DNA of 64,000 nucleotides from Psilocybe cubensis (taxonomy: Eukaryota): assembly GCA_017499595.2 (NCBI GenBank), contig CM039003.1, positions 2,232,001 through 2,296,000 of the forward strand. The letters are read 5' to 3'. Numbering within the stretch: position 1 is the stretch's first letter; each line of letters starts with the position of its first letter. Below, piece after piece: positions 33,752-64,000 of this stretch. The position numbers were made by a program, and so were the translations under genes. The notes beneath the pieces were generated by a model. The model made no database searches, was not told the origin of the DNA, and was given only the letters and a program-made list of their open reading frames with translations.

Positions 33752-34488
33752 GGCCCTGTTCGGTAGCAACTCACGCTGTGAGTTACTAACTCACGATTTC
33801 CATATTTGGTGCTTTGTGACAACATTTACCACTGGCTGAGCATGGTCACCCATCAGTCACATCGCCCAATATGTACATCTTCGCCATTTATAGAAATCGT
33901 GAGTTTATAACTCACGACCGTGACTTGCTACCGAACACACGGCGGGCAAAAGTGCTGACTAGTCAGCCTGGGAGTTGGTCTGACCAGTCACCTGACCAGT
34001 GTGCTGACTAGTCACCTGACTAGTCATGTAGCTGTCACGCATTTATTGTCACGCTGCTAAGTTTCTGTAATTCCGCTCATTGATTGTAGAACAGAGGATT
34101 TCTTTTCTATGCCCCAGACTTACACAGGGCGGGCATCGTGTACCTTCTAAACAACGTCGGGTGACCGTGCACAAGTACTCTGAAAGCGTGATTAGTTATC
34201 CATTTGTTTGAATAATGACCGAATTTCAACCAAACACAAGAAATATCCAATTCCGAGTCATTCATTACTTTTCCTCAGTGACAGTGCTTCGGAAGACAAT
34301 GGTTTATTCCCATTTAATCTTATGTTACTGAACTCATTTACCAATACTAACCAGCGTGACAACATTTGTGTGACCTCTCCTGACTGGTCAGTTGATTCGT
34401 CACGGAACGCGTCACGATATGGTCACGTGACTGGTCAGACCAACTCCCAGGCTGACTAGTCAGCACTTTTGCCCGCCGTGACAGGGCC
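33752..34488. mobile_element. About 190-bp MITE (outer) with GGCCCTGTTCGG termini, interrupted in its right TIR by a second MITE
   Basis: About 54-bp imperfect TIR GGCCCTGTTCGGTAGCAACTCACG... / ...CGTGACTTGCTACCGAACA|GGGCC; TA on both flanks. Confidence 0.8.
33938..34480. mobile_element. 543-bp MITE (inner), CAC...GTG termini, 3-bp TSD (CACTA/CMC-like)
   Basis: Perfect 54-bp TIR CACGGCGGGCAAAAGTGCTGACTAGTCAGCC...; TSD ACA at 33935-33937 and 34481-34483; subterminal TGACTAGTCA repeats. Confidence 0.92.
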
Positions 34489-35068
34489 TAAAAGGATGCA
34501 CGATGAAGGCTACCAATGTCGTGACAATCAGTGGACATCAAGGACAGGTTTTCCTATTAATCGAGTTTAGATAATGTTTATTTACACAAGTCTAATCACG
34601 CCGAAGACCCGCTCGTTTCAGGGAGCCTCACCTCTCTGACCGCTTCCAGTTCAACAAACACCAACATTCAAGGGTGGGCTCCCCCCAGTTGTCGACCCAA
34701 CATGTACCACCTGACATGAATGTTTGAGCTTTGTCTGAACAGGAGAACCGCGCTCGCATGCTTTGCAGCCTTTTCTCCGACACGTCTTGTCTCTGCAACA
34801 AGAAGTGCATCTCGACGCACCTCAGCATAAAAGACCGCCTGGAGAATCTGGTTCTCGCACTTTTGCGTCCCCCGCTCTCCAGGTAAGCTTTTACTGCTCG
34901 AAACTCGCTCGACTTCATCACCGCTGATCTCTGTTTTGCGTCCCCCGCTCTCCAGATCACGGTCACCCGAGTCTCTCTGCTCTCTACTTTAACTCGTATC
35001 GTGTCTATACTCGCATCCTCGTTCTCGCGAACCGGCCATCCTCGAACTCGTCATTCTTTTGTACTCTT

Positions 35069-36307
35069 ATGAGTGACCTTTCGGAGCACGAAGCCACACC
35101 CGAACAACGTCTAACCCCCTCCTTCGTTCTATCGGAAGAAACTTCGGCGGAGTGCGATAAGCACGTCGAGAATTACAAGAACGGTTCAGTTGAGAAGGCA
35201 GACACGCTCATTCTTATTCAGTCGACCCTCGCCAATGTTTATCCCGACGACCATTCGCAACACGTTATCGAAGCCATACATTCTTATCTAGCGATACTTG
35301 ACAACTTCGATGGATTACGCAAAGACGCATTACGACGAGGCGGAGGAGCTACTAAGTCAAGTGCAGGAAGTATCGAAGGAGAATCGGAGGAAGAGGGAGA
35401 CGATGAACCGGAATCATCTCATACCATCGAGACCCCTATCGACTGCGCGTCCAAGCGGGCGAGATCTCCTGTTGAGGATTTCTTCGCCGACCAGGAGCTA
35501 CCGCCGCGAAAACGACACGTTGAGGGAGGCGCGTTTCCGTGGGAGATCCAGGAGGCGCTCACACCTTCCAACCTTTCCCCCGAACTACTCCAGACCCAGG
35601 CCATACTCGCTACCATCGCGAAGGACTACAAGGCTGCCGAGGCGTCGCTCCTTAACTCCGCGAAGAGACCTGGGCTCACCGTTGAGCAGTGGAAACGAAT
35701 ATTACTTTCGAAATGCGCGGACTTCGACGCGATATTCAGCTCCCTGTACACAGTCACCATCGACGAGGAGAGGAAGGAGAAGATCGGTTCCCTTGAGGTC
35801 GTTGTCGGAGCGGCCACACCATCAAAGTCAGTCCGCGAACACTCTGATTGGACAATCGCGTGGAACCAATACGCGAGAGCGGTACTGTTCGTGTTCCCCC
35901 ACAGACACCGCGAGCTCAGCGCATACGGAGATTTCATCCTTCAACTGTTTCGTTCAACCCCCTCTTACCTCCACGAGAACGTCATCAACTACGACAAAGC
36001 GGTCCGACTTAGAGCCTCAAACCGACGGGACCTGCTCCTCGACGACCACGCCAGCTACACGGACCTCGGCGTCCTCTGGCTTCAACACGGAGGTGCTCAC
36101 AGCTCTGCGACCGCGAAGAATTCCAGGGAAAGCAGGTCGCGCTCAGTTGGTGCCCCAGGTTCGCACACCTCTAGGGCAAGACGAGAGGCATGTCGTCGCT
36201 ACAACGCCGGAAACTGTCCCAACACACAGGCAACATGCAACTACGCCCACATCTGTAGCGCCTGTAGGACAACAGGACATGTGGCCGACAAGTGTACCCG
36301 CAAATGA
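35069..36307 (+). CDS. Ngaro ORF1 Gag-like protein
   Basis: 412 aa ending in CRRYNAGNCPNTQATCNYAHICSACRTTGHVADKC (CCCH plus CCHC fingers). Confidence 0.88.
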   Translation: MSDLSEHEATPEQRLTPSFVLSEETSAECDKHVENYKNGSVEKADTLILIQSTLANVYPDDHSQHVIEAIHSYLAILDNFDGLRKDALRRGGGATKSSAGSIEGESEEEGDDEPESSHTIETPIDCASKRARSPVEDFFADQELPPRKRHVEGGAFPWEIQEALTPSNLSPELLQTQAILATIAKDYKAAEASLLNSAKRPGLTVEQWKRILLSKCADFDAIFSSLYTVTIDEERKEKIGSLEVVVGAATPSKSVREHSDWTIAWNQYARAVLFVFPHRHRELSAYGDFILQLFRSTPSYLHENVINYDKAVRLRASNRRDLLLDDHASYTDLGVLWLQHGGAHSSATAKNSRESRSRSVGAPGSHTSRARREACRRYNAGNCPNTQATCNYAHICSACRTTGHVADKCTRK

Positions 36308-38166
36308 TGTACGACGTTTCGTCACCAATCCCTTCGCCCCTGTGTATCGTTTCTCGCACCTTTCTTCGCGCCCTCTTTTCTTACGCTCACTCTATTGGTC
36401 CGAGGATAACACTTCTGCACATGTTTCTCTTGCCCGTTTCACCGAGACTGCCCAACCTCTGCCCCCTGTCCCCATCAACGAACTTAGGAATAGCGTTGCT
36501 CTCGACACTATTGCGTGTTATGGTCATTTTTTCAACATCACCACGCCCATTAATGCTGTCCGTCTGCACGCCTACCTCTTGCAACACCCGAATCCCGACT
36601 ACGTGAATTCTGTCATCGATGGCATCCAGAATGGGTTCTGGCCGTGGGCCGACACGGCTCGCACCCACTTGCCTCCGACCCTCGACGTCACCGAATACCT
36701 CACCGAGGAACGCCACATCACCTTCGCCAGCGAGCAGCGCGACATCGAAATCTCAAAGGGGCGTTTTTCTCAATCCTTCAGTTCCTTGCTTCCCGGGATG
36801 CTTGCAGTTCCAGTAGGGGTTGTACCCAAGCCTCACTCCCACAAACTCCGACTCGTTGTCAACCATAGCGCTGAACCTTTCGCACGAAACTCGTTGATCG
36901 ACAAAACACTGGTTTCTGTACCTCTCGACAGCGTTCAGTCACTCGGTAGTGTCATCCTTCGGCTGCGTCGGGAGGCCGGTCCACACGCTGAGCTCGTCCT
37001 CTTCAAGAGCGATGTGTCCGAAGCTTACAGACTCTGTCCTATGGCCCCTTTGTGGCAGATCAAGCAGGTTGTCAAGATCAACGGCCTTTTCAACATTGAC
37101 CGTTGCAACAACTTTGGTAGCAGAGCAGGAGGGGGCGTGTGGGGCGTCATTTTCAGCCTCATCTTGTGGATCGCTACCTCGATCTTGCTCATCCCTGATC
37201 TCTTTGATTACGTCGACGACGTTTTCTCAGTCACCCTAGCTGGCAACACTCTTTGGTACGCCCCGTACAATAAGATTCTGTCCGAACCTCAAGCCCGACT
37301 CCTCATGCTCTGGGACGAGCTGGGCGTTCCGCATGCCGAAGACAAACAGCTCTCCGGCACAGCCCTGACTATCATCGGGTTTTTACGTCGACACCGTGGC
37401 CATGACAATCACCATGCCCCTCGACTCCCTCCTCAATCTCATTCATGCGATCCGCGAGTTTGCCGTGATGGGTCGCCGTCCAACACTAGCTGATTACCAA
37501 GCAATCGCAGGGTGGATCAACTGGGCGTTAAACACCTATCCCCTCCTACGCCCCTGCCTGTCTAGCGTTTACGCAAAGATGGCAGGCAAGCACATTTCCT
37601 CTGCCAAAATCTACGTCAATAAGCGCGTCTGCCAGGAACTCATCTGGGCGGCAAACCACCTTGAGACATGCAATGGCGTGCTGTTCCTGGAGTCCTTGGA
37701 CTGGGACCTGGCTGAGGCCGACTACATCCTTCTGACGGACGCTTGTCTGTTCGGGATGGGCTTCTGGTCTCCATGTCATGACTACGGTTTCCAATATCGC
37801 ATCGTGTCCGCCTCACGCCCAATCTTCTACTGGGAGGCTTACACTGTCCTCTCCGCATTTGCTTGGATCCTCTCCTCCTGTTCTCCCCCACCCAAGCGCG
37901 TCGTCATCTACTGCGACAATACCAACACCGTAAATCTTTTCAGCACACTTCGCGCCACTCCGGACTACAACCCCATTGTCCTCACTGCCGCCGACCTCAT
38001 GCTACGTTTCAACTGCCAGCTGCGAGTGGTGCATATCGCAGGCGGTCAGAACACAGTTGCAGACTCCATTTCACGCTTCGACAATCAAGTCGCCCTCTCC
38101 TTCCGTCCCAATCTCCTGATTCGGAATTTTTTACCCCCACAGTTGATGCTGGGGGCAGATCTTTGA
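35298..38166 (+). pseudogene. Ngaro RT-RNase H, frameshifted in copy 1
   Basis: KSDVSEAYR, YVDD, TDAC, CDNTNTV, NTVADSISR; GGGTTTTTAC at about 37377-37386 has one more T than the other copies (GGGTTTTAC). Confidence 0.88.
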
Positions 38167-39164
38167 TGGCCCCACTGTCCCGCCCCAGGCAACCCGCAAG
38201 GATTGCCTGGTCGCTCGAGCGCTTACACCATGAACGAGCTATAGCTCTTGGATTTGCGCTCGAGCCCTCCTCCATTGCCGCCTACTCTTCCGCCCTCCAC
38301 TCTTACATCGCTTTTTGCAACCTCCACGCTTTCCCTATCAAACCTACCGCTGATACTCTCAGTTTTTTCATCGTGTTTATGTCCCACCACATCAAACCCT
38401 CTTCCGTGGCTGCCTACCTTTCCGGCATCTGCAGCCAGCTGGAGGCTTTTTATCCATCCATCCGCTCAACCCGTCAGTCACAACTCGTTCGCCGTACCCT
38501 CACAGGCTGCATCAAACTCCGTTCTGTCCCCACCACACGCCAGATGGCTGTTTCCTCAGAACAGATGCTAAGCCTCCACTCTCGCCTCATTCACTCCAAT
38601 GACTACGACACGCTGCTCTTCCTGGCCATTTGCACCGCCGCATTCAACGGTCTCCTGCGCATGGGTGAGTGCGTGTGGCCGGACTCTCACCACCTGCGTG
38701 ACTACCGTAAGGTTACCCGCCGCGCCACAGTGGAATCTACGCCATCCTCCTTCTCCTTCTTGCTACCTTCGCACAAGGCAGATCGCCTTTACGAGGGAAA
38801 TAAGGTGGTGATTCACGCCTCTAACGCAGGACAGGAAGCCCTTCTGGCTCTGCAGTTATACCTCGCACGCCGTGACAATGCTTTCCCTTTGAAACCCGAG
38901 TTATGGCTCCGTAGCGACGGCTCAGTCCCAACTCGTCGTTGGATGACATCCTTGCTCAAGTCATCCTTCCCAGGCCTCGGAATCTCAGGACACTCGTTTC
39001 GCCCCGGCGGCGCCACCTACCTGGCATTGCGCCGTGTCCCTTCCCATATCATCCAGGCGATGGGCCGTTGGAAGTCTGACACCTTCCAAACCTACATCCG
39101 AGAACACCCCGCCCTGTTGGCGGCACTTCTCTACACCTCCGTTGACCCTCGCACCACCCCATAG
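38166..39164 (+). CDS. Tyrosine recombinase (Ngaro ORF3)
   Basis: GLLRMGE, SHKAD, GHSFRPGGAT, GRWKSDTFQTYIR; ATG overlaps the RT stop (TGATG). Confidence 0.92.
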   Translation: MAPLSRPRQPARIAWSLERLHHERAIALGFALEPSSIAAYSSALHSYIAFCNLHAFPIKPTADTLSFFIVFMSHHIKPSSVAAYLSGICSQLEAFYPSIRSTRQSQLVRRTLTGCIKLRSVPTTRQMAVSSEQMLSLHSRLIHSNDYDTLLFLAICTAAFNGLLRMGECVWPDSHHLRDYRKVTRRATVESTPSSFSFLLPSHKADRLYEGNKVVIHASNAGQEALLALQLYLARRDNAFPLKPELWLRSDGSVPTRRWMTSLLKSSFPGLGISGHSFRPGGATYLALRRVPSHIIQAMGRWKSDTFQTYIREHPALLAALLYTSVDPRTTP

Positions 39165-39227
39165 ATGCTTGTTTTTTCTGTCCTTCTTGACTCCCCTTTC
39201 CTGCACCCTTTCCCCAGGGCGTGTCTC

Positions 39228-40810
39228 TGTTAGGAATCGACTTAAGTCAAGAGAGAAGAGTGCCCAAAGACCAAGTTGATATCGAAGCTGGGGTCTGACT
39301 ACTGACCCCAGGACCCTATATATACATGGAGACCGGAGTAACTACTTCCCGGACCAGAGTACTCGACATATGACAACTATCAATAGATGAAACAGGAGAA
39401 CGATAGACGTGGGACCGAACACAAAGATAGAACAAGGCATGACAGCGTGGGACCGTAACAGATAACGATAACGGATAGGGGTGGCACCAATACGTACCCT
39501 GACATCACCTCCCCTCTAAAGGTCGGTGTCCCAACGACCTGGTCTTCACCGTGGACGGTTTGCACCAAAGACACGAGGCGGTCCACCGCCACGACGCGCG
39601 GTCTGAATTCCCTCCCTAGGCTGAACAGGCCCGGGGCGAGAGTAACCGTCAGAGTGTTGCTGCGGAGCCCTGAGAGCATCCACCTCCATAGGCGAACCAG
39701 GGGCGAGCGACGAGGATGGGCTGGAGCGAGTGTCGACAGCCGTAGGAGTGGGCAAATGCGGAGAAGCCGTCCCGGAACGGGATGTCCGCGTAGTTGGGGT
39801 AGAGCTCGAGGTTGGAGTAGGAGAAGGAGGTTCAACGACGAGGGTAGGAGGGGCGGCAGTGGGCGCAGGAGGCTGTTTAGGCTTCTTGGACCTAGGGTTG
39901 CGGATGCGACGACGGGCAATCCGCTTGCCGATAGCAGAAAGAGCATCACCAACTTCACGAGCGGTGCCCCTAATAGTGACGGCACGCAAACCGGAGGTGA
40001 CGACGGGGGAGACCGAGATCTTTGCGTGCGAGATGTCGTGGATTTGGCGTAAGCCAGTTCCCGCGCGCCCTATGACATGGCCAGCCTGTTCGTCCGCAAT
40101 AGACAGGGTAGCGACGATCTTCTCGAGGGCGGCTTTGGTAGTAGTAGAGCGGATGGATTGGGGGTGCGGGGGCCCTGTAGTAGGGGTAGAGGTAGGTGCA
40201 GCCGGGCGTTCCTTCCTAGAGGTGCGTCGAGCGCGAGATGCGCGAGCAGAGGGAGTGGGAGCGGCAGGCGGTTTGGGTAGGGAGGCTGTGAGGCGTTCAA
40301 GTTTAGACTCGATGGCAGACAGTCGGTCATCAACCTTTTTATCGGCGTCAAACCGGACTTGCTGCGCCCTAAAGAGAAGGGCGAAACGGTCCTCAAGGGA
40401 CATCGTCATGAACCCATCGTAAGGCGAAGGAGGGTCGGCCATAGAGTATAGTAGGTGGGGGCAAGGTAGAGTGGAGTAGACAAGCGCTGCAGTGGATAGA
40501 GTACCAGGGCAACGTTGGGTAGCTTCGATATGCTGTTAGGAATCGACTTAAGTCAAGAGAGAAGAGTGCCCAAAGACCAAGTTGATATCGAAGCTGGGGT
40601 CTAACTACTGACCCCAGGACCCTATATATACATGGAGACCGGAGTAACTACTTCCCGGACCAGAGTACTCGACATATGACAACTATCAATAGATGAAACA
40701 GGAGAACGATAGACGTGGGACCGAACACAAAGATAGAACAAGGCATGACAGCGTGGGACCGTAACAGATAACGATAACGGATAGGGGTGGCACCAATACG
40801 TACCCTGACA
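39228..40810 (-). mobile_element. Non-autonomous LTR retroelement (1583 bp) encoding a KH-domain protein
   Basis: 277-bp LTRs 39228-39504 and 40534-40810 (TG...CA, one mismatch seen); 5-bp TSD GTCTC; PPT AGAGGGGAGGTGA; empty site present in the other Ngaro copies. Confidence 0.95.
39546..40442 (-). CDS. 298-aa coiled-coil + type I KH domain + PMEVD protein
   Basis: LSIADEQAGHVIGRAGTGLRQIHDISHAKISVS...RAVTIRGTAREVGDALSAI is a canonical KH domain with a GxxG loop. Confidence 0.88.
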   Translation of the reverse strand: MADPPSPYDGFMTMSLEDRFALLFRAQQVRFDADKKVDDRLSAIESKLERLTASLPKPPAAPTPSARASRARRTSRKERPAAPTSTPTTGPPHPQSIRSTTTKAALEKIVATLSIADEQAGHVIGRAGTGLRQIHDISHAKISVSPVVTSGLRAVTIRGTAREVGDALSAIGKRIARRRIRNPRSKKPKQPPAPTAAPPTLVVEPPSPTPTSSSTPTTRTSRSGTASPHLPTPTAVDTRSSPSSSLAPGSPMEVDALRAPQQHSDGYSRPGPVQPREGIQTARRGGGPPRVFGANRPR

Positions 40811-41000
40811 GTCTCCGTACGTCCGCTGTTGTCTGCTTATTGTCTCATAACTTCCCTGGTTTTCGCTGTTATCACCGACCTCAGGCATCCCTCAACGTTA
40901 GATGTCGTCGGATGTACTGTGTCGCGCGTTTCCGTGTGTTTCTCAAATTTATGCTTTCATGCCACCTTCAAATCTTTTCTTCAACCATCATACCTCCTTA

Positions 41001-43330
41001 CCGCTTTTTTGTACCTCCCGCAGTCGTTACACATTTTTTAGAGTACAAACTGCGCAAATACATCTCTTTTCTTTTTGCAGACGCCGCTGCTGATCACAGG
41101 GCGGGCGTCGTGCACCATCTACACAACATCGGGTGACCGTGCTTGAGAACATCTGAAAGCGTGATTAGTCGAGTTTAGATAATGTTTATTTACACAAGTC
41201 TAATCACGCCGAAGACCCGCTCGTTTCAGGGAGCCTCACCTCTCTGACCGCTTCCAGTTCAACAAACACCAACATTCAAGGGTGGGCTCCCCCCAGTTGT
41301 CGACCCAACATGTACCACCCGACATGAATGTTTGAGCTTTGTCTGAACAGGAGAACCGCGCTCGCATGCTTTGCAGCCTTTTCTCCGACACGTCTTGTCT
41401 CTGCAACAAGAAGTGCATCTCGACGCACCTCAGCATAAAAGACCGCCTGGAGAATCTGGTTCTCGCACTTTTGCGTCCCCCGCTCTCCAGGTAAGCTTTT
41501 ACTGCTCGAAACTCGCTCGACTTCATCACCGCTGACCTCTGTTTTGCGTCCCCCGCTCTCCAGATCACGGTCACCCGAGTCTCTCTGCTCTCTACCCACC
41601 ATCCATCCCTACAGTCACCACCTCTCTCAAACAATCATGGCTTTGCCCGCTAGCGCTTACAGTGTCTCTCAAGACACCCGGATGCCCAAGTGCTCACCAC
41701 GTCCCACATCCGTTCGGGCATCTCCCGCGTTCAGCTACGATTTACCTACACCCAACAATTCCGTCATACACCGTTACGGGCAGCGCACACCAACAGCGGG
41801 CGAACTCCTCGTACTACGCGAAGAACTAGAGGAGCAATTTAGGGACATGCCTGACATGGAGCTATTGGTTTACCTATTCGATTCCGTGTTATCGTGCCAC
41901 TCAGAGTGGGGTTGGCGCGGTCGTTTCATTCGCCAGTTCTTTTATGACCTATTCTACGAAATGCGTCGCCTAGGCTACTCCGAGTACGAATTGCTACGCT
42001 CTCTATTCCTGGCGCCCTGACGTACCCCAGATTTGCATGCGTTTCTTAGTACACACTGTCCCTTCACGCGTGCTACTCTTTTGTCCCGCTTTTTTGTACC
42101 TCCCGCAGTCGTTACACATTTTTTAGAGTACAAACTGCGCAAATACATCTCTTTTCTTTTTGCAGACGCCGCTGCTGATCACAGGGCGGGCGTCGTGCAC
42201 CATCTACACAACATCGGGTGACCGTGCTTGAGAACATCTGAAAGCGTGATTAGTCGAGTTTAGATAATGTTTATTTACACAAGTCTAATCACGCCGAAGA
42301 CCCGCTCGTTTCAGGGAGCCTCACCTCTCTGACCGCTTCCAGTTCAACAAACACCAACATTCAAGGGTGGGCTCCCCCCAGTTGTCGACCCAACATGTAC
42401 CACCCGACATGAATGTTTGAGCTTTGTCTGAACAGGAGAACCGCGCTCGCATGCTTTGCAGCCTTTTCTCCGACACGTCTTGTCTCTGCAACAAGAAGTG
42501 CATCTCGACGCACCTCAGCATAAAAGACCGCCTGGAGAATCTGGTTCTCGCACTTTTGCGTCCCCCGCTCTCCAGGTAAGCTTTTACTGCTCGAAACTCG
42601 CTCGACTTCATCACCGCTGACCTCTGTTTTGCGTCCCCCGCTCTCCAGATCACGGTCACCCGAGTCTCTCTGCTCTCTACCCACCATCCATCCCTACAGT
42701 CACCACCTCTCTCAAACAATCATGGCTTTGCCCGCTAGCGCTTACAGTGTCTCTCAAGACACCCGGATGCCCAAGTGCTCACCACGTCCCACATCCGTTC
42801 GGGCATCTCCCGCGTTCAGCTACGATTTACCTACACCCAACAATTCCGTCATACACCGTTACGGGCAGCGCACACCAACAGCGGGCAAACTCCTCGTACT
42901 ACGCGAAGAACTAGAGGAGCAATTTAGGGACATGCCTGACATGGAGCTATTGGTTTACCTATTCGATTCCGTGTTATCGTGCCACTCAGAGTGGGGTTGG
43001 CGCGGTCGTTTCATTCGCCAGTTCTTTTATGACCTATTCTACGAAATGCGTCGCCTAGGCTACTCCGAGTACGAATTGCTACGCTCTCTATTCCTGGCGC
43101 CCTGACGTACCCCAGATTTGCATGCGTTTCTTAGTACACACTGTCCCTTCACGCGTGCTACTCTTTTGTCCCGCTTTTTTGTACCTCCCGCAGTCGTTAC
43201 ACATTTTTTAGAGTACAAACTGCGCAAATACATCTCTGTTCTTTTTGCAGACGCCGCTGCTGATCACAGGGCGGGCGTCGTGCACCATCTACACAACATC
43301 GGGTGACCGTGCTTGAGAACATCTGAAAGC
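41001..43330 (+). repeat. Tandem 1085-bp B-A-X units (about 2.1 copies)
   Basis: Near-identical ORFs offset by exactly 1085 bp (41544 vs 42629). Confidence 0.92.
41637..42020 (+). CDS. 127-aa accessory ORF X in the Ngaro terminal repeat (other copies 42722-43105, 46976-47359, 48082-48465 minus, 62891-63274)
   Basis: Intact in all five copies, good ATG context (ACAATCATGG), helical-looking C-terminus. Confidence 0.6.
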   Translation: MALPASAYSVSQDTRMPKCSPRPTSVRASPAFSYDLPTPNNSVIHRYGQRTPTAGELLVLREELEEQFRDMPDMELLVYLFDSVLSCHSEWGWRGRFIRQFFYDLFYEMRRLGYSEYELLRSLFLAP

Positions 43331-43370
43331 CATCCCTTATTGTCTTTTCGCCACATCGGGGGTTCCCACG

Positions 43371-46300
43371 CGAGACTGCCCAACCTCTGCCCCCTGTCCC
43401 CATCAACGAACTTAGGAATAGCGTTGCTCTCGACACTATTGCGTGTTATGGTCATTTTTTCAACATCACCACGCCCATTAATGCTGTCCGTCTGCACGCC
43501 TACCTCTTGCAACACCCGAATCCCGACTACGTGAATTCTGTCATCGATGGCATCCAGAATGGGTTCTGGCCGTGGGCCGACACGGCTCGCACCCACTTGC
43601 CTCCGACCCTCGACGTCACCGAATACCTCACCGAGGAACGCCACATCACCTTCGCCAGCGAGCAGCGCGACATCAAAATCTCAAAGGGGCGTTTTTCTCA
43701 ATCCTTCAGTTCCTTGCTTCCCGGGATGCTTGCAGTTCCAGTAGGGGTTGTACCCAAGCCTCACTCCCACAAACTCCGACTCGTTGTCAACCATAGCGCT
43801 GAACCTTTCGCACGAAACTCGTTGATCGACAAAACACTGGTTTCTGTACCTCTCGACAGCGTTCAGTCACTCGGTAGTGTCATCCTTCAGCTGCGTCGGG
43901 AGGCCGGTCCACACGCTGAGCTCGTCCTCTTCAAGAGTGATGTGTCCGAAGCTTACAGACTCTGTCCTATGGCCCCTTTGTGGCAGATCAAGCAGGTTGT
44001 CAAGATCAACGGCCTTTTCAACGTTGACCGTTGCAACAACTTTGGTAGCAGAGCAGGAGGGGGCGTGTGGGGTGCCATTTTCAGCCTCATCTTGTGGATC
44101 GCTACCTCGATCTTGCTCATCCCTGATCTCTTTGGTTACGTCGACGACGTTTTCTCAGTCACCCTAGCTGGCAACACTCTTTGGTACGCTCCGTACAATA
44201 AGATTCTGCCCGAACCTCAAGCCCGACTCCTCATGCTCTGGGACGAGCTGGGCGTTCCGCATGCCGAAGACAAACAGCTCTCCGGCACAGCCCTGACTAT
44301 CATCGGGTTTTACGTCGACACCGTGGCCATGACAATCACCATGCCCCTCGACTCCCTCCTCAACCTCATTCATGCGATCCGCGAGTTTGCCGTGATGGGT
44401 CGCCGTCCAACACTAGCTGATTACCAAGCAATCGCAGGGTGGATCAACTGGGCGTTAAACACCTATCCCCTCCTACGCCCCTGCCTGTCTAGCGTTTACG
44501 CAAAGATGGCAGGCAAGCACATTTCCTCTGCCAAAATCTACGTCAATAAGCGCGTCTGCCAGGAACTCATCTGGGCGGCAAACCACCTTGAGACATGCAA
44601 TGGCGTGCTGTTCCTGGAGTCCTTGGACTGGGACCTGGCTGAGGCCGACTACATCCTTCTGACGGACGCTTGTCTGTTTGGGATGGGCTTCTGGTCTCCA
44701 TGTCATGACTACGGTTTCCAATATCGCATCGTGTCCGCCTCACGCCCAATCTTCTACTGGGAGGCTTACACTGTCCTCTCCGCATTTGCTTGGATCCTCT
44801 CCTCCTGTTCTCCCCCACCCAAGCGCGTCGTCATCTACTGCGACAATACCAACACCGTAAATCTTTTCAGCACACTTCGCGCCACTCCGGACTACAACCC
44901 CATTGTCCTCACTGCCGCCGACCTCATGCTACGTTTCAACTGCCAGCTGCGAGTGGTGCATATCGCAGGCGGTCAGAACACAGTTGCAGACTCCATTTCA
45001 CGCTTCGACAATCAAGTCGCCCTCTCCTTCCGTCCCAATCTCCTGATTCGGAATTTTTTACCCCCACAGTTGATGCTGGGGGCAGATCTTTGATGGCCCC
45101 ACTGTCCCGCCCCAGGCAACCCGCAAGGATTGCCTGGTCGCTCGAGCGCTTACACCATGAACAAGCTATAGCTCTTGGATTTGCGCTCGAGCCCTCCTCC
45201 ATTGCCGCCTACTCTTCCGCCCTCCACTCTTACATCGCTTTTTGCAACCTCCACGCTTTCCCTATCGAACCTACCGCTGATACTCTCAGTTTTTTCATCG
45301 TGTTTATGTCCCACCACATCAAACCCTCTTCCGTGGCTGCCTACCTTTCCGGCATCTGCAGCCAGCTGGAGGCTTTTTACCCATCCATCCGCTCAACCCG
45401 TCAGTCACAACTCGTTCGCCGTACCCTCACAGGCTGCATCAAACTCCGTTCTGTCCCCACCACACGCCAGACGGCTGTTTCCTCAGAACAGATGCTAAGC
45501 CTCCACTCTCGCCTCATTCACTCCAATGACTACGACACGCTGCTCTTCCTGGCCATTTGCACCGCCGCATTCAACGGTCTCCTGCGCATGGGTGAGTGCG
45601 TGTGGCCGGACTCTCACCACCTGCGTGACTACCGTAAGGTTACCCGCCGCGCCACAGTGGAATCTACGCCATCCTCCTTCTCCTTCTTGCTACCTTCGCA
45701 CAAGGCAGATCGCCTTTACGAGGGAAATAAGGTGGTGATTCACGCCTCTAACGCAGGACAGGAAGCCCTTCTGGCTCTGCAGTTATACCTCGCACGCCGT
45801 GACAATGCTTTCCCTTTGAAACCCGAGTTATGGCTCCGTAGCGACGGCTCAGTCCCAACTCGTCGTTGGATGACATCCTTGCTCAAGTCATCCTTCCCAG
45901 GCCTCAGAATCTCAGGACACTCGTTTTGCCCCGGCGGCGCCACCTACCTGGCATTGCGCCGTGTCCCTTCCCATATCATCCAGGCGATGGGCCGTTGGAA
46001 GTCTGACACCTTCCAAACCTACATCCGAGAACACCCCGCCCTGTTGGCGGCACTTCTCTACACCTCCGTTGACCCTCGCACCACCCCATAGATGCTTGTT
46101 TTTTCTGTCCTTCTTGACTCCCCTTTCCTGCACCCTTTCCCCAGGGCGTGTCTCCGTACGTCCGCTGTTGTCTGCTTATTGTCTCATAACTTCCCTGGTT
46201 TTCGCTGTTATCACCGACCTCAGGCATCCCTCAACGTTAGATGTCGTCGGATGTACTGTGTCGCGCGTTTCCGTGTGTTTCTCAAATTTATGCTTTCATG

Positions 46301-51000: not shown

Positions 51001-52300
51001 ACCCTGCGATTGCTTGGTAATCAGCTAGTGTTGGACGGCAACCCATCACGGCAAACTCGCGGATCGCATGAATGAGGTTGAGGAGGGAGTCGAGGGGCAT
51101 GGTGATTGTCATAGCCACGGTGTCGACGTAAAACCCGATGATAGTCAGGGCTGTGCCGGAGAGCTGTTTGTCTTCGGCATGCGGAACGCCCAGCTCGTCC
51201 CAGAGCATGAGGAGTCGGGCTTGAGGTTCGGGCAGAATCTTATTGTACGGGGCGTACCAAAGAGTGTTGCCAGCTAGGGTGACTGAGAAAACGTCGTCGA
51301 CGTAACCAAAGAGATCAGGGATGAGCAAGATCGAGGTAGCGATCCACAAGATGAGGCTGAAAATGGCGCCCCACACGCCCCCTCCTGCTCTGCTTCCCAA
51401 AGTTGTTGCAACGGTCAATGTTGAAAAGGCCGTTGATCTTGACAACCTGCTTGATCTGCCACAAAGGGGCCATAGGACAGAGTCTGTAAGCTTCGGACAC
51501 ATCGCTCTTGAAGAGGACGAGCTCAGCGTGTGGACCGGCCTCCCGACGCAGCCGAAGGATGACACTACCGAGTGACTGAACGCTGTCGAGAGGTACAGAA
51601 ACCAGTGTTTTGTTGATCAACGAGTTTCGTGCGAAAGGTTCAGCGCTATGGTTGACAACGAGTCGGAGTTTGTGGGAGTGAGGCTTGGGTACAACCCCTA
51701 CTGGAACTGCAAGCATCCCGGGAAGCAAGGAACTGAAGGATTGAGAAAAACGCCCCTTTGAGATTTTGATGTCGCGCTGCTCGCTGGCGAAGGTGATGTG
51801 GCGTTCCTCGGTGAGGTATTCGGTGACGTCGAGGGTCGGAGGCAAGTGGGTGTCAGGGCAACACTATAATCAGTGTGACAAGGCCACCAACAAAGATTAA
51901 GCAAGAGAGAAAGAGAGAGAGCAGAGGGAGAGTAAGAGAGCAAAGAGAGAATAAGAGAGTGAGAGAGATTCAATGGTTCTAAGAGATCACACCAATGATA
52001 GTGGATATCCTAAGAGATTGAAGCTGAAGCTACAGCTACCTACAAGTCCAGTATTTATACTCTACAGCTATGCTAGAATATTCTCTACATTACATCATAA
52101 AGAAAGGTTAAAGAATAAAAGTGACATCATATAGAAAAAGGATGAGTAAGACTAGGAATGATATAGAATTTACTAGAAAGAAGTGGAGCAAGAAGGCTGT
52201 GATGAAAGAAATAAACTATCTAATCAGATAATTGATAAGATAATGAAAGGATAAGATAATTCTGTGAAGATAAAGAGGGGAAACTGGAGAAACCCTGACA

Positions 52301-55300
52301 TCACCCCCTCTCTAAGGCACATTTTCCACAATGTGCACATGGATGGGTTAGTTTAGAGGGTTTAAGAAGAGGAGGAGGTTCAGTAAAGTTAATAATAGGA
52401 GTGAAAGAAAGTCTATCAAAGGTCATAGCAGAAATCCTTCTAGGTGCTGAAGGATGTTTGGCATGGAAGTCCTTGATAGCCTTAGAAGCATTTTTCAAAT
52501 GCTCTGCAGGCTCCCAAGTGCATTCTTCATTAGGATAGTTCTTCCACTTGACCAAATATTGAAGTTTGTTTCTAAAAAGTCTGCTGTCCTTGATAAATTC
52601 AACTTCCCACTCAGGATTTTCTCCTTGAATGACAGGAGGTGGTCTAGAAGCAGGCTTTCTTCCTACAATATCTGGGTGATAAGGTAGAAGTTTAACCACA
52701 TTGAACACTGGATGGATTTTCATGGTAGATGGCAGCTTAAGCTCATAGGCATTAGGGCTAATAATTTTGGTAATTTTGTAAGGCCCATATCTTTTATCAT
52801 CCAATTTCTTGGAGGGCCTATCAGTTTTGAGGTCCTTGCCATCCAACCATACCAAATCCCCAACTTTGTACTGAGTTGGAGTACCTCTGTGTCTATTATA
52901 GAATTTAGCCATATCATCAGCAGCTTTTCTAAGTGCAGACTCTGCTTCTTTCCTGGCTTCTTCCATATTTTTCACAAAGGTATCCACAGTGTCCATTTTA
53001 CTATCTCTAAGGGGTTCAGTGCCCATTCTGGGATGTCTGCCATTATTGAGCATGAATGGTGTCTGTCTGGTTGAAGCCTGAACTCTATTGTTATAAGAGA
53101 ATTCAGCTAGAGCTAACCATTCAACCCAATCATCTTGTCTATGGTTTATAAAGAGTCTAAGATACTGCTCAATTTCTTGGTTAACTCTTTCAGTCTGACC
53201 ATCAGTTTGGGGATGGTAGGCTGTAGATGAGGCTGTCTGGATACCAAGTATTGAGTTGAGTTCTTTCATAAACCTTGAGACAAACTGTGGACCTCTATCA
53301 CACAGAATTTTAATGGGTAAGCCATGGTGTTTCCAGACATAATCTCTGTATAGTCTGGCTGTCCCTTCAGAAGTGACTTCATCTGTAGTAGGGATAATGT
53401 GGATCATTTTACTAAGTCTATCCACAACCACCATAATGGCATTATACCCTTGACATTCTGGTAACCCCATAATAAAGTCCACAGAGATGCATTGCCAGAC
53501 ATCAGAGGGAATCTCAGTAGGAATTAAAAGGCCAAGAGGTTTGGCTGGAAAGGTTTTGGTTCTGTTGCATCTATCACAACCTCTGGTATAGGCTGCAATA
53601 AAATGTGACATTCCTGGCCACCAATAATTCCTAGAGACTAGCTCAATTGTCTTCCATTTCCCTGGATGTCCAGCAATGAAGGCATCATGGTGCAGTTCCA
53701 CAATCTTTCTTCTAAGATCTTTGTCCTTGGGAACATACACCTTCCCCCTGTAGAGAATAAGGCCTTGTTCTTCTGACCATTCCTGTCCTTCAATCTTCTT
53801 GGTAGAAGATTTCTTGAGCTCCTGAACTGCCTTGACCACCTTTTCATCCATCTCCTTAGCTTCTCTAATCTTCTTAAGAAGATCATTTTCTGCACCAGTA
53901 ATGGTAGCATGACCCTGCTTGAGAGCCTGGATTTTAAAGTAGGAAGGTTTGAGGAGAACTACATTTTGGTTATCATTCTCTCCCTTTTTATGATCTGGTC
54001 TCCTAGACAAAGCATCTGGCTTAAGAGATCTTTTACCAGGCCTATGATGAAGAGTAAAATCAAATCTGGACAGGAAGAGTGACCATCTGGCTTGCCTTCT
54101 GCTGAGCTTTTGGGCAACCATAAAGTACTCTAAGTTTTTGTGGTCTGTCCAAATCTCAAAGGAATGTTGGGTTCCTTCAAGATAATGTCTCCATTCATCT
54201 AGTGCTCTGATAATAGCCAGCATCTCTTTGTCATGGATCTCATAATTCCTTTCTACTTCAGATAGACTCTTAGACATAAAGGCTACAGGATGCCATTTCC
54301 CATCTGATCCTTCCTGAGATAAAACAGCCCCAGTAGCATAATCTGAACTGTCTGCTTCAACTTTATATGGCTTGTTATCATCAGGGAAAATCAAGACAGG
54401 TGAAGAAGTGACTTTCTTCTTTAACTGGTCAAAGGCTTCCTGCTGTCTAAGACTCCATCTCCAGACTGTTCCTTTCTTTGTCAATTCATGAAGGGGCTTA
54501 GCAATGTCTGCAAAATCCTCTATGAACCTTCTATAAAAATTAACAAATCCCAAGAATGATTGGACATCCTTGACATTTTCAGGTTCAGGCCATTTAGAAA
54601 CTCCCTCTACCTTGACAGGATCCATCTCAATCCTGCCTTGTGAAATGATTAGTCCAAGATATTCAATCTTTTTCTTTTCAAATTCACATTTCTCTGCTTT
54701 AAGGTAGAGTTTGTTCTGTTCTAAGATTTGCAGAACTTGCTTGACTACCTCTCTATGATGATCAAGAGTCTCAGTGAAAATTAAAATGTCATCCATGTAG
54801 ACAATGACAACATTTCCATCAATGAGCTCAATAAAGATATCATTCATCATAGTTTGGAAGGTAGCAGGACTATTGGTTAAACCAAAGAACATGACCAATG
54901 GTTCAAACAGCCCTCTATTGGTTCTAAAGGCTGCTTTCCATTCATCTCCTTTTTTGATTCTGACATTGTTAAATCCCCACCTAACATCAAGTTTGGTGAA
55001 GTATTTGGCTTTGCTGAGTTTGGTGATAATGTCAGAAATCAATGGAAGGGGGTAGGAGTTCTTGATGGTCATTTCATTCAGTTTCCTATAGTCCTGGACA
55101 AGCCTAAGAGATCCATCCTTCTTCTTGACAAAAAATACAGGGGAGGCCATAGGTGACTTGGAGGGTCTAATCCTGCCAGACTTCAGATTTTCCTCTAAAA
55201 AGGCATCAAGTTCCTTTTGTTCATTGGGAGAAAGAGGATAAATCTTGGATCTGTAAGGTTCAGAACCAGGTTTCAGCTCAATAGCATGATCCCAAGGCTT

Positions 55301-56187
55301 TCTGTCTGGTAGCCTATCAAAAGATTCCTTTGAAAAAACACCTTTAAACTGATGATAGTGCTTAGGAACAGTTTCTTCAAAGGTTTTCTTAGGGGAATCA
55401 GCTTGCTGATGAGACTCTTCTGCTAATCTTTGAGACATAGTAGAAGTAGCATTAATAGACTGCTTCTGAGGATGAAGGTATGAAATAAAAATTCTATCCT
55501 CAGGCTCAATCTCAGAATCAGAAGAATCTTCAATAGAATCATCTTCTTCTTCATCAAATTGAGGGAGTTTCCTCCTTTTGACTGCAGCTATTCTCTGCCT
55601 CTTTCTTCTGGCTCTTTTGGCTTCCATTTGGCAGTCAGAGGGACATCTAATAAACTGGACATCCCCTGTCTTCCAATCAACATCTGGATTATGGTGCCAA
55701 AGCCAAGTATGTCCAATGATAGCAGATTTGTCTCCCAAGTCACAAACAGCAAAGGTGGCCCTTTCTGTATGGTTTTTGTGTACCATAATTAAGTCTACTT
55801 CCTCATGGATAGAGCCACTCTTGTTGAGGGTACCATCAACATTATAGACTGGAATGGCTCTAGGAAGTTTCCTTGTGTTGAGATTATGATACTTCACAAA
55901 CCAGAATGCAGAAAGAGGCCAGTAGCTCCAGAATCAAGCAAAGCATCAACAGATAACCTTTTCTCTGTGTCCATTGTCTTTAAGATGACAGACAAATGGG
56001 TAGAGGTTTTAGGATTATGGTTGAGGATGTAGATCTTTTCAGGGAAGGTAGAAAGAGAGGAAGAAGAAGACATGATTTCTGCACCAGAATCTGAAGACTG
56101 AGGATCAAGTCTGTCAATTTCATTTTCTAGTACATTAAATCTATTCCATTGGGACATGTCTTTCACCAATGGTGCTTCTAAAAATTT
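52301..56187 (-). CDS. pol: Gypsy Pol (PR-RT-RH-IN-chromodomain), with a 1-nt frameshift near 55900
   Basis: LLDSGAT protease, YMDD RT, ADSS RNase H, HHCC and DRG integrase, GPY, C-terminal WEVEFIKDSR..YLVKWKNY..TWEP chromodomain. Confidence 0.95.
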
Positions 56188-57287
56188 TTCTTTTCCTCAT
56201 CTTTCTGCTCCTTGCCTTCCAAGATTAATTTCCCAAAGTAGTCAGCCAGTTCTTCATGGGTCATAGCATTGATGTTAACTGATGACCTGCAGTTTACAGC
56301 CTTATGACCAGGCTTTCTGCACTTGAAGCAAACAATTGGCCTGACTGACTTCCATCCAGAGTCAACCTCCATGGGAACTACATCTGGTTGCTTTGCCTGA
56401 GCACCAAAGGTCCTTGAGCTGCTGTTGGAAAAGACTGGAGGATTTGGAGTAGGCTTAGGAACAGCCTTGGGAGTTGGGGCTTTAAGGAAGGGAGAAGAAG
56501 AGGAGGAGGAAAGAGACTTGGTAAAGGCCTCACTCTGTCTCCACTGCCTATCTAGCCTAGTACTCCATTTAATCCATCCATCCAAGGTTTTGGGCATGTC
56601 AGGAACATAGTAGACTGCATTCCTGAGATTTTCATTAAGCCCAGCCTTGAATTGGTCTACCAAAGCAGCATCATTATACCCAGTATCTGAGATCAGAGCC
56701 CTGAAGCTAGCAACATACTCATCAGCAGTCTGTCTGCCTTGCTTGAGCATGTGCATTTTATGCTTAGCTGTGTTGGAGGGGTCTGGATCTGCAAACACTT
56801 CCCTAAATTCATAAACAAAGTCAGCCCAAAGACCTTCTTGGGACTGAGCATTGTCTATTACTTTAGTCTTCTCATATGCCCACTTCCCAGCAGTACCTCC
56901 TTTCATATGAGATAGAGCACAAATAACTTTCTGAAAGTCATCTGTAATCCCTTTCCCATAGAAATATAATTTAAGCTGACTGAGGAAGTTTTCTGCCTTC
57001 TCCATAGAACCATCAAATGGATCTGGAGGTGAGACTTTAATGGCAGAGTGTGAACAGGAAGGGGCAACATGAGGGGTAGGGAAAGAGTGAATATCTAGAG
57101 CAGCAGGTGGTGGTGGTGGTGGTGGTGATGGTGACTGACTGACTGGTTGCTGAGGGTGTGGTGGAGTGGATAATGACTGCTGCTGCTGTCTAAGAAAATT
57201 CAACTCTTGGGTAAGGAGCTGGACCTGATGCATGAGCTCTTCCACAGAAGGAGTGGTGGGAGGCAATTGGGAGGGGTCCATGTCCAT
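56178..57287 (-). CDS. gag: Gypsy Gag
   Basis: PDPFDG, LKQGRQTADEYVASF, PMEVD, CFKCRKPGHKAVNC zinc knuckle. Confidence 0.95.
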   Translation of the reverse strand: MDMDPSQLPPTTPSVEELMHQVQLLTQELNFLRQQQQSLSTPPHPQQPVSQSPSPPPPPPPAALDIHSFPTPHVAPSCSHSAIKVSPPDPFDGSMEKAENFLSQLKLYFYGKGITDDFQKVICALSHMKGGTAGKWAYEKTKVIDNAQSQEGLWADFVYEFREVFADPDPSNTAKHKMHMLKQGRQTADEYVASFRALISDTGYNDAALVDQFKAGLNENLRNAVYYVPDMPKTLDGWIKWSTRLDRQWRQSEAFTKSLSSSSSSPFLKAPTPKAVPKPTPNPPVFSNSSSRTFGAQAKQPDVVPMEVDSGWKSVRPIVCFKCRKPGHKAVNCRSSVNINAMTHEELADYFGKLILEGKEQKDEEKKNF

Positions 57288-59995
57288 GGGTAGGGGTAGG
57301 TAGGCTCTCTGATGTGTGTGTGGGAGAAGCTATCTACTGAAAGTGCCCTTGAAACTATACTAAGTATTCTAAAAAAATATCTATCTACTGGATACCCAGT
57401 TGTCACACCACTCAGGGCTCTAAACCTAGGATCACAGGGTTACTGGATATTTCCTAGACCACCAAAAACAGAACACTAGTAGGACTGTGTCTGCCCCAAC
57501 AGTTGGTATCCCTATCTACTAAGTTCACACACAGCACACAACAGAGAGTAGGAAAGATGATGAGCCAAAGGTCTTGAGGAAAGGTCTTGAGGAGGATGTT
57601 GAAGATTGGTGGAGATGTAGAGATTGGTAAGAAGATTGGTGAAGAGGTTGATGAAGAGGTTGGTGGGTTGGAAGTGGAGGAAGAAGGTTGAGGTAATGGT
57701 GTTGAAGAGGTTGAAGAGGTGAAGAGTTTGGTGTTGAAAGAGAGATGGTGGAGTTGTCTTGAGAGAGCTTCAATCTTCTGTCAGGGCAACACTATAATCA
57801 GTGTGACAAGGCCACCAACAAAGATTAAGCAAGAGAGAAAGAGAGAGAGCAGAGGGAGAGTAAGAGAGCAAAGAGAGAATAAGAGAGTGAGAGAGATTCA
57901 ATGGTTCTAAGAGATCACACCAATGATAGTGGATATCCTAAGAGATTGAAGCTGAAGCTACAGCTACCTACAAGTCCAGTATTTATACTCTACAGCTATG
58001 CTAGAATATTCTCTACATTACATCATAAAGGAAGGTTAAAGAATAAAAGTGACATCATATAGAAAAAGGATGAGTAAGACTAGGAATGATATAGAATTTA
58101 CTAGAAAGAAGTGGAGCAAGAAGGCTGTGATGAAAGAAATAAACTATCTAATCAGATAATTGATAAGATAATGAAAGGATAAGATAATTCTGTGAAGATA
58201 AAGAGGGGAAACTGGAGAAACCCTGACAGTGGGTGCGAGCCGTGTCGGCCCACGGCCAGAACCCATTCTGGATGCCATCGATGACAGAATTCACGTAGTC
58301 GGGATTCGGGTGTTGCAAGAGGTAGGCGTGCAGACGGACAGCATTAATGGGCGTGGTGATGTTGAAAAAATGACCATAACACGCAATAGTGTCGAGAGCA
58401 ACGCTATTCCTAAGTTCGTTGATGGGGACAGGGGGCAGAGGTTGGGCAGTCTCGGTGAAACGGGCAAGAGAAACATGTGCAGAAGTGTTATCCTCGGACC
58501 AATAGAGTGAGCGTAAGAAAAGAGGGCGCGAAGAAAGGTGCGAGAAACGATACACAGGGGCGAAGGGATTGGTGACGAAACGTCGTACATCATTTGCGGG
58601 TACACTTGTCGGCCACATGTCCTGTTGTCCTACAGGCGCTACAGATGTGGGCGTAGTTGCATGTTGCCTGTGTGTTGGGACAGTTTCCGGCGTTGTAGCG
58701 ACGACATGCCTCTCGTCTTGCCCTAGAGGTGTGCGAACCTGGGGCACCAACTGAGCGCGACCTGCTTTCCCTGGAATTCTTCGCGGTCGCAGAGCTGTGA
58801 GCACCTCCGTGTTGAAGCCAGAGGACGCCGAGGTCCGTGTAGCTGGCGTGGTCGTCGAGGAGCAGGTCCCGTCGGTTTGAGGCTCTAAGTCGGACCGCTT
58901 TGTCGTAGTTGATGACGTTCTCGTGGAGGTAAGAGGGGGTTGAACGAAACAGTTGAAGGATGAAATCTCCGTATGCGCTGAGCTCGCGGTGTCTGTGGGG
59001 GAACACGAACAGTACCGCTCTCGCGTATTGGTTCCACGCGATTGTCCAATCAGAGTGTTCGCGGACTGACTTTGATGGTGTGGCCGCTCCGACAACGACC
59101 TCAAGGGAACCGATCTTCTCCTTCCTCTCCTCGTCGATGGTGACTGTGTACAGGGAGCTGAATATCGCGTCGAAGTCCGCGCATTTCGAAAGTAATATTC
59201 GTTTCCACTGCTCAACGGTGAGCCCAGGTCTCTTCGCGGAGTTAAGGAGCGACGCCTCGGCAGCCTTGTAGTCCTTCGCGATGGTAGCGAGTATGGCCTG
59301 GGTCTGGAGTAGTTCGGGGGAAAGGTTGGAAGGTGTGAGCGCCTCCTGGATCTCCCACGGAAACGTGCCTCCCTCAACGTGTCGTTTTCGCGGCGGTAGC
59401 TCCTGGTCGGCGAAGAAATCCTCAACAGGAGATCTCGCCCGCTTGGACGCGCAGTCGATAGGGGTCTCGATGGTATGAGATGATTCCGGTTCATCGTCTC
59501 CCTCTTCCTCCGATTCTCCTTCGATACTTCCTGCACTTGACTTAGTAGCTCCTCCGCCTCGTCGTAATGCGTCTTTGCGTAATCCATCGAAGTTGTCAAG
59601 TATCGCTAGATAAGAATGTATGGCTTCGATAACGTGTTGCGAATGGTCGTCGGGATAAACATTGGCGAGGGTCGACTGAATAAGAATGAGCGTGTCTGCC
59701 TTCTCAACTGAACCGTTCTTGTAATTCTCGACGTGCTTATCGCACTCCGCCGAAGTTTCTTCCGATAGAACGAAGGAGGGGGTTAGACGTTGTTCGGGTG
59801 TGGCTTCGTGCTCCGAAAGGTCACTCATAAGAGTACAAAAGAATGACAAGTTCGAGGATGGCCGGTTCGCGAGAACGAGGATGCGAGTATAGACACGATA
59901 CGAGTTAAAGTAGAGAGCAGAGAGACTCGGGTGACCGTGATCGGGACAGTGTGTACTAAGAAACGCATGCAAATCTGGGGTACGTCAGGGCGCCA

Positions 59996-63930: not shown

Positions 63931-64000
63931 CTTCAAGCAGAAACTCAAGATACATGCTACACAGTAAATAGAGTAATTTCCTCATTATCCAGGTTCAAAC

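Follow-up and report, generated by a model that had tools for sequence, protein, structure and literature searches.

A small KH-protein-encoding LTR element of Psilocybe cubensis with a Tf1-like self-priming layout

In Tf1/sushi retrotransposons the primer-binding site (PBS), which lies just past the 5' LTR, complements a stretch of 10–11 nt after the TATA box (PMC7175516; bioRxiv 10.1101/2022.12.06.519325; PMC4600332), and in Tf1 itself pairing with the PBS involves the first 11 bases, with RNase H cleavage falling between bases 11 and 12 (PMC7175516). The primer region of Tf1 has been described as a three-duplex 'pretzel' structure (bioRxiv 10.1101/2022.12.06.519325), and self-priming has also been predicted for a plant Copia lineage (PMC6317226). 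Non-autonomous LTR elements include the TRIMs, defined as being under 1,000 bp and encoding no protein (PMC10886601), and the plant TR-GAG elements, shorter than 4 kb, with LTRs, one ORF and no enzymes, and apparently still mobile (PMC4350172).

The element described here lies in a 64,000-nucleotide stretch of Psilocybe cubensis DNA (the window) and encodes a KH-domain protein. Like Tf1 of S. pombe and Tf1/sushi elements generally, this KH element has a PBS that complements part of the LTR immediately past the TATA box and not a tRNA; unlike them, it lacks a Gag capsid, protease, reverse transcriptase (RT), RNase H and integrase, and the flanking duplexes of the Tf1 'pretzel' are not detectable across its relatives. 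KH elements also have an apparently covarying U3-R hairpin, whereas the accessible sections of PMC7175516, bioRxiv 10.1101/2022.12.06.519325 and PMC4600332 mention none for Tf1. The design is that of TR-GAG elements, but the ORF encodes a KH-domain protein without a Gag family in Pfam, the host is a fungus and the layout is a self-priming one. With TRIMs, including the fungal Helenus, the element has in common its non-autonomy, two LTRs, a PBS, a polypurine tract (PPT), a 5-bp target site duplication (TSD) and a long-lived, helper-dependent lineage (PMC10886601); it differs from them in its length of 1,583 bp, its conserved 298-aa frame, the TATA box in its LTR and the absence of a tRNA-type PBS. 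The KH element is thus Tf1-like at the priming step and TR-GAG-like in design, and a member of neither group. We found no publication on the family in the literature searched, and an existing repeat-library entry is possible; the main texts of PMC10886601 and PMC3248453 contain no KH terms. The priming mechanism is thus a known one, whereas the kind of non-autonomous element in which it occurs is apparently undescribed.

Copies and relatives of the KH element

The features of the element are listed in Table 1, together with those of the candidate helper in the window. KH_1 is the sole Pfam family inside the KH element, its enzyme and gag content being nil, and no Rfam match was found within it. 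The encoded protein has, in order, a helix, a low-complexity linker, the KH domain, a basic patch, a P/S/T-rich tail, the PMEVD motif and RRGGG.

Table 1. Coordinates of the KH element and of chromovirus family A in the window
Feature	Position	Strand	Remarks
Non-autonomous LTR element, whole	39228..40810	-	1,583 bp; two 277-bp LTRs, differing at 1 site; TG..CA ends
TSD GAGAC, 5' copy	40811..40815	-	5 bp; a further host-repeat copy at ~46150 has GAGAC once
TSD GAGAC, 3' copy	39223..39227	-	Matches 5' copy
KH element 5' LTR	40534..40810	-	U3 is 215 nt if R begins at 40595
KH element TATA box TATATATA	40623..40630	-	27 nt between TATA box and 40595
KH element U3-R hairpin CTGGGGTC..GACCCCAG, 5' LTR copy	40594..40617	-	-15.4 kcal/mol, z -3.4; reaches first self-primer bases
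Predicted self-primer AGCTTCGATAT	40585..40595	-	First 11 nt of RNA if the inferred start holds; exact PBS complement
KH element PBS ATATCGAAGCT	40521..40531	-	2 nt (GC) downstream of 5' LTR end
KH element coding frame, 298 aa from first ATG (40442)	39546..40442	-	Sole long frame on coding strand
Long N-terminal helix, residues 47-84 of stop-to-stop frame	40284..40397	-	pLDDT ~90-95
Type I KH domain, GxxG loop intact (GRAG)	39930..40109	-	Pfam KH_1 E 8.9e-9
PMEVD motif of KH protein	39678..39692	-	Also just before zinc knuckle in several Gags of the genome
KH element polypurine tract + TGA	39505..39517	-	Adjoins 3' LTR
KH element 3' LTR	39228..39504	-	U3-R hairpin copy at 39288-39311 is the one expected in RNA
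Candidate helper, chromovirus family A	51851..58228	-	450-bp LTRs, TSD CCCAC; gag, RT, RNase H, integrase, chromodomain
Family A predicted self-primer AGCTTCAATCT	57943..57953	-	Complement of family A PBS
Family A PBS AGATTGAAGCT	57766..57776	-	2 nt past LTR; 9/11 identical to KH element PBS

A DNA search of the genome returned at least 32 matches to the element, at least 15 of them full length. An exact 5-bp TSD was found by a strict pattern at 14 of 17 insertions, the paired LTRs differ at 0–2 of 277 sites in ten of 15 copies (at 5–22 in the other five), and the KH coding frame is intact in 11 of the 15. Two copies are apparently split by later insertions of about 25 kb (halves L017 and L018, G000:C7) and about 18 kb (L016 and L019, G000:C9); the TSD ACTAT is common to both C7 halves, and a family C RT motif sits between the C9 halves. 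DNA contigs of two other sequencing runs cover the KH element, and one contig per run skips positions 39205 to 40823, although this is not proof of a polymorphic insertion because the host is a multi-copy repeat.

Psilocybe cubensis itself is the source of the closest named protein, which is 98% identical to the KH protein. Searching with the protein produced 55 matches, with Psilocybe, Agrocybe, Dendrothele, Lentinula and Sphaerobolus as the named hosts and many contigs of only 1–2.6 kb, while a profile, at E up to 1e-30, retrieved 70 clusters. Sixteen profile matches were scanned for families: ten contained KH_1 only, one had no family and five were multi-KH proteins of host type, and no Gag or Pol family was found in any of the 16. 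A metagenome scan for relatives yielded 55 loci. Alignment of both LTR starts or both LTR ends, where feasible, gives lengths of about 1.5–2.0 kb for the relatives, with one of 3.7 kb, and Pol matches at these loci fall outside the LTR pairs. A weak search among 7,999 candidates of 577–2000 aa found no longer KH homologue. Three relatives of 759–781 aa (P0129, P0140 and P0141, on contigs of 3–6.5 kb) have the same outline of a helix and a single KH domain, KH_1 as their only family, long low-complexity tails and a common short C-terminal segment without Pfam match; these possibly represent a larger KH-element subfamily.

Both the KH element and the chromovirus of the window are embedded in a tyrosine-recombinase retroelement that is present as a cluster of near-identical copies (approximately 34900–51850 and 58230–64000). 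This host retroelement, which we take to be Ngaro/DIRS-like, has a CCCH-type gag, a YVDD RT motif, the recombinase motifs GHSFRPGGATY and MGRWKS..YIR and 1,085-bp split repeats, and the frames tested gave no significant Pfam or PDB match. At 33938–34480 the window also contains a MITE-like pair of 61-bp inverted repeats 421 bp apart, within which a 48-bp stretch is 90% like the host repeat, and at 3546–5739 exons matching histidine methyltransferase, DinB_2 and FGE-sulfatase, a layout that is presumably that of the ergothioneine gene EGT1.

Priming and the U3-R hairpin

The original prediction, made from the window alone, placed the PBS 2 nt from the LTR as the exact complement of an LTR 11-mer lying 27 nt past the TATA box, and on re-reading the strings, coordinates and spacing were all correct. 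The primer (predicted RNA sequence AGCUUCGAUAU) and PBS form a duplex of exactly 11 bp with no extension at either side (-14.1 kcal/mol), and an 11-mer complementary to the PBS arises in 5 of 100,000 shuffled LTRs. To the 55 metagenome loci we applied a self-priming rule comprising ACA, a spacer and an exact 10-mer complement no more than 200 nt upstream. With a 2-nt spacer the rule holds at 36 of the 55 loci, or 35 once an AT-rich false hit (L069) is removed, compared to 4, 5, 13, 2, 1 and 2 of 55 at spacers of 0, 1, 3, 4, 5 and 6 nt, the spacer-3 set being mostly the same 11-mers (L071 satisfies the rule at this spacer) and the loci not being independent since many come from few samples. The 19 of 55 loci without an exact hit comprise six with less than 150 nt upstream, two near-matches (L108 and L110), eight without the layout, the false L069, and two (L105 and L107) in which the duplex is exact but the context of the LTR end is altered.

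Together with the window copy (n = 37), the 35 loci and L071 contain 19 distinct duplexes, the window's included, and the 18 distinct 3' 10-mers among these differ at a mean of 4.3 positions and a maximum of 8. That primer and PBS change together across relatives makes self-priming likely, and the Tf1-like priming originally proposed is upheld by this covariation, given 35 of 55 exact relatives at the 2-nt spacer against 1–5 of 55 at spacers 0, 1, 4, 5 and 6. We conclude from the sequence comparison that the KH element very probably primes by self-priming, from a putative start site placed by its position relative to the TATA box and duplex. We gave no weight to the apparently compensatory changes in PBS and LTR within the genome (L012, L015): both are CpG transitions, which can coincide by decay.

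Flanking duplexes of the Tf1 type were detected in none of the 37 sequences at p < 0.05 for either flank, using a crude test on short duplexes; the window copy has an 8-bp candidate duplex with the sequence following the PBS (-7.1 kcal/mol, p 0.105). Nor was an R-U5 stem detected, the R-U5 loop being no more structured than shuffles (mean z +0.6), and the predicted 5' 106 nt of the KH RNA fold slightly better than shuffles (z -1.3). Directly 3' of the primer KH elements carry a conserved word, mostly C[AG]A[CT]TTGG (window 40571–40584; relatives L059–L113), which is missing from nine autonomous self-priming types and is a candidate cleavage context or protein-binding site.

Priming by a host tRNA, through its 3' end or an anticodon half and with the LTR match incidental, would be in keeping with fungal TRIMs, in which the anticodon loop of spliced tRNAs is often used as primer (PMC10886601). 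The string CTTCGA does look like an anticodon loop, tRNA-Ser(CGA) matches the PBS at 8 of 11 positions, and our tRNA comparison covered 30 of 63 scored loci and 15 anticodon types. However, no TGG directly follows the KH LTR, the 8/11 match, which is the best among 25 distinct sequences, mispairs at the priming end, and of 75 exact genomic copies of the 11-mer the 31 lying outside the element include none in a tRNA. The PBS moreover varies freely among relatives in step with the LTR copy, and a conserved tRNA could not follow such changes. Comparison with tRNAs had been proposed as a check on the original prediction, and no tRNA examined in these 30 loci fits as well as the LTR does; tRNA priming of the KH element is largely refuted, and we consider it most improbable. 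A search with a loose tRNA-Arg pattern returned background numbers (232 matches compared to 186 in the control) and pointed only to tRNA-Ser(CGA).

Between the TATA box and the primer, and ending in the first bases of the latter, lies a hairpin on which the original prediction was silent. Of 30 sequences, 23 have z below -1 for the hairpin and 15 have z below -2, the set including two autonomous elements that are both near 0; F is the one type among the nine autonomous self-priming ones with z < -1 at this site. The first three primer bases are all paired in the minimum-energy fold of 22 of 28 distinct KH-element sequences, a stricter 6-bp hairpin rule holds in 16 of 28, and primer position +2 is represented by four pair types (G-C 13, C-G 8, A-T 2, T-A 1) and position +3 by two, counts for which pairs were chosen by folding among relatives that are not independent, with no tree correction. 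These substitutions provide strong evidence, at the level of sequence, that the U3-R hairpin covaries among KH elements. If R starts at the primer the hairpin would be present only at the 3' end of the RNA, where it may hide the beginning of the primer sequence in its second copy, or mark the site of strand transfer.

The hairpin is also the main argument for a different start site, being the strongest conserved structure outside the duplex and overlapping the first 2–3 primer bases. Were transcription to begin some 20–28 nt further upstream, it would form a 5' leader gating the primer, a switch between hairpin and primer-PBS pairing. Such a start would fall almost directly past the TATA box, and the geometry of the relatives argues against it: the start of a TATA-like box lies 32–36 nt before the duplex in 33 of 36 (one at 23, two truncated), and the duplex mostly starts at an A after a pyrimidine run. 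An A after pyrimidines at such a distance from the TATA box is the usual geometry of a pol II start. We consider the upstream start improbable, and retain a start at the first base of the primer.

Selection on the KH protein and its likely role

The predicted model of the protein shows a type I KH domain and a single long helix; confidence in the remainder is low. The best Foldseek matches are KH3 of hnRNP K and of PCBP2 (E 6e-7 to 2e-6, rmsd ~1.4 A), all matches listed being KH-type, and the best sequence matches to solved domains are hnRNP K KH3 and PCBP1/2 KH (E 3e-5 to 2e-3, 20–33% identity). As in hnRNP K KH3 and PCBP1/2 the protein has the type I fold and a GxxG loop, but it differs from these in having only one KH domain, flanked by a long helix and disordered tails, and in being carried by a mobile element; with an identity of only 20–33%, the base preference of hnRNP K/PCBP is not transferable to it.

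The KH frame is under purifying selection and is not a relic. The GxxG glycines are invariant in 43 aligned sequences, dN/dS is 0.25–0.42 for pairs of KH cores with pS of 0.05–0.7 (50 cores; a single closer pair gave 1.07), and it is about 0.1 between young subfamilies within the genome (e.g. changes at 19 of 248 synonymous compared to 5 of 646 non-synonymous sites). As the element is unable to move alone, selection on its frame suggests that the protein helps its own copy, and most likely it would bind the element's own RNA in cis for stabilisation or packaging.

An alternative is that the protein does not act on its own RNA at all, but is a captured host domain directed against silencing or host RNA handling, or a passenger. 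The N-terminal helix is without significant Gag homology and the closest solved domains are general C-rich RNA/ssDNA binders, both of which are compatible with this. However, dN/dS near 0.1–0.4 and invariant GxxG residues are unexpected for a passenger, and a purely trans benefit would reach copies lacking the frame, weakening selection. We regard this alternative as rather unlikely and binding of the element's own RNA in cis as the better account.

The motif PM[EDQ][VILM][DEG] occurs in 17 of 43 KH proteins (mean 0.05 in shuffles) and in six of 13 Gags of the genome, family A's included, 15–31 aa before the zinc knuckle. Since disordered proteins often contain MEVD-like words, the occurrence of PMEVD in both KH proteins and Gags is a lead to a Gag origin rather than proof of one. 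A Gag origin of the N-terminal helix was examined separately and found no support: comparison of 63 KH with 25 Gag N-termini by hhalign gave a probability of 3.4% (2.2% for the reversed control), and the best HMM score was 11.3 bits compared to 8.0 for reversed proteins. A more speculative reading, which we hold only tentatively and think rather unlikely, is that an old fungal lineage swapped the chromovirus Gag capsid for a host-type KH domain while keeping the outline of Gag (N-terminal helix, linker, PMEVD, basic tail), the protein being a cis-preferring adaptor that loads its own RNA into particles of self-priming chromoviruses, with the self-primer and a dedicated U3-R hairpin allowing copying by more than one helper family. 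If true, this would be a satellite strategy that works via an encoded packaging adaptor and not by mimicry of the helper's packaging signal.

Candidate helpers and proposed mechanism

Lacking gag and pol, the KH element needs a helper. An autonomous element with the same LTRs, for which the original prediction proposed a search, was not found among the 32 DNA matches (20 opened) or 22 protein matches. The suggestion in that prediction of mobilisation in trans by a self-priming chromovirus is borne out by the element's missing gag/pol, its TG..CA ends and 5-bp TSDs, and its type of PPT, and on this sequence evidence we consider such mobilisation likely. The Gypsy element of the window (family A) has the self-priming layout of the KH element, a likeness that the original prediction does not mention. 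With the domain order of Ty3/Gypsy and a C-terminal chromodomain, family A is a chromovirus (Pfam RVT_1, RT_RNaseH, Integrase_H2C2, rve, SH3_Tf2-1 and Chromo, and a gag with Ty3_capsid and zf-CCHC); fungal chromovirus clades have been named MarY1, Tcn2 and Laccy (PMC2864245). The pol frame of the window copy is broken in the protease region. At least 21 near-full copies of family A are 99–100% identical (21 scored of 86 candidates).

Our survey of helpers covered Gypsy-type RT motifs of one pattern only. The pattern has 87 matches in the genome, approximately 40 of them A, 12 C, 7 D, 4 E, 3 B and the rest singles; 30 non-A, non-B matches were opened and 13 Gypsy types compared, of which nine have the self-priming layout. 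It had been claimed that the KH element shares cis signals with the window chromovirus, that their PPT-LTR junctions nearly match and that their LTR bodies differ. The junctions do read TTAGAGGGGAGGTGA-TGTCAGGGT in the KH element and TTAGAGAGGGGGTGA-TGTCAGGGT in family A, and the LTR bodies are unrelated, with a best BLAST match of E 0.05 over 16 nt. The claim of common cis signals stands in part: family A ranks first of the 13 types at U3 (9-nt run), PPT (13/15) and PBS (9/11), but family C is better at the U5 end (8-nt run compared to 3 for A) and the junction is not specific to A. Families A, B, C, C2 and F all have a purine tract ending in TGA, and TGT[CTA]AGGG is likewise the opening of KH relatives from other samples, so part of the end match between the KH element and A is inherited and not recently tuned.

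With nine of 13 types self-priming, C better at U5 and the junction present in relatives elsewhere, the helper is not narrowed to family A. That A is nonetheless the helper, the common ends reflecting co-adaptation to its RT and integrase, has a probability that we put a little below one half. In addition to its first rank at U3, PPT and PBS, A is the most abundant family, a frame from the protease motif through RT is present in three of five copies read, and its Gag contains PMEVD, the strict motif being missing from the Gags of C, C2, F and E; eight purines followed by TGATGTCA have 77 exact matches, 39 with the commonest junction of A and 16 with that of the KH element. Against this, its U5 match is the 3-nt one, KH relatives in other samples start TGTCAGGG, TGTTAGGG or TGTAAGGG, and KH insertions differ somewhat from those of A in the first base of the target site (p 0.06 by chi-square and 0.047 by a purine test, with n doubled through symmetrising the counts). 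The age of copies does not discriminate among helpers, since copies of B, C, D and E likewise have LTR pairs that are 99–100% identical. The other reading, to which we give a chance just short of even, is that the helper is the C group, or that several self-priming chromoviruses are interchangeable, as a self-primer removes the need to match the tRNA of any one helper. The nine self-priming types are consistent with interchangeable helpers, and the persistence of the KH lineage from Agaricales to Sphaerobolus suggests tolerance of helper change. Family C itself has TCCTAACA at U5 and CCTTTA..GGTGA at the PPT in common with the KH element, primer-PBS complementarity is kept in all 13 C-group copies read, and target-site first bases do not differ between KH and C (p 0.40, at low power); but its U3 match is 3 nt, its PBS matches at 5 of 11 positions, its Gag is without the strict PMEVD and it has 12 RT-motif matches compared to approximately 40 for A. 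Target-site composition does not choose between A and C.

Target-site composition does rule out family D, a chromodomain Gypsy (L167, L168, L177, L192) that prefers G at position -2 of the target (13/16 vs 3/28). Its PBS is a T run followed by GA, for which no self-complement was found. SM-Tcn1 also has a T-rich, unexplained PBS (PMC2864245), which that of family D recalls, and D could be primed by a poly(A) tail. Past the LTR of the 8.3-kb Gypsy elements of family I (L185, L186) comes TATTTTTGAC, in which TGG is missing and for which no self-complement was found.

Taken as a whole, we think it probable that the window contains a recent copy of a small non-autonomous LTR lineage of mushroom-forming fungi, with Tf1-style priming, a self-priming chromovirus as helper and a KH protein under selection. 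Transcription by pol II would start at or beside 40595, and the first 11 nt would fold back onto the PBS, a pairing suggested by covariation in a layout that is itself observed. RNase H of the helper would cut after nucleotide 11, as in Tf1, and its RT would extend the primer; the PPT would prime the plus strand and the helper integrase insert the copy, with the 5-bp TSDs that are observed. RNase H cleavage, PPT priming and integrase action are established steps. The helper would be a self-priming chromovirus of the genome, family A being the best single candidate, at somewhat under an even chance, and the C group the next, and the KH protein would bind its own RNA in cis.

Self-priming has been worked out mainly in Tf1, and the KH lineage adds a natural covariation set of 19 primer/PBS duplexes. 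What travels with self-priming in this set is the 10–11-bp duplex, the 2-nt spacer and the U3-R hairpin, the flanking duplexes of Tf1 not being detectable. The lineage also provides a handle on how non-autonomous LTR elements enter the particle of a helper, in the form of a single conserved predicted RNA-binding protein, open to mutation and assay. Finally, copies of the element carry annotations of host proteins, 'hypothetical' or 'K Homology domain-containing', which inflates counts of KH genes in mushroom genomes.
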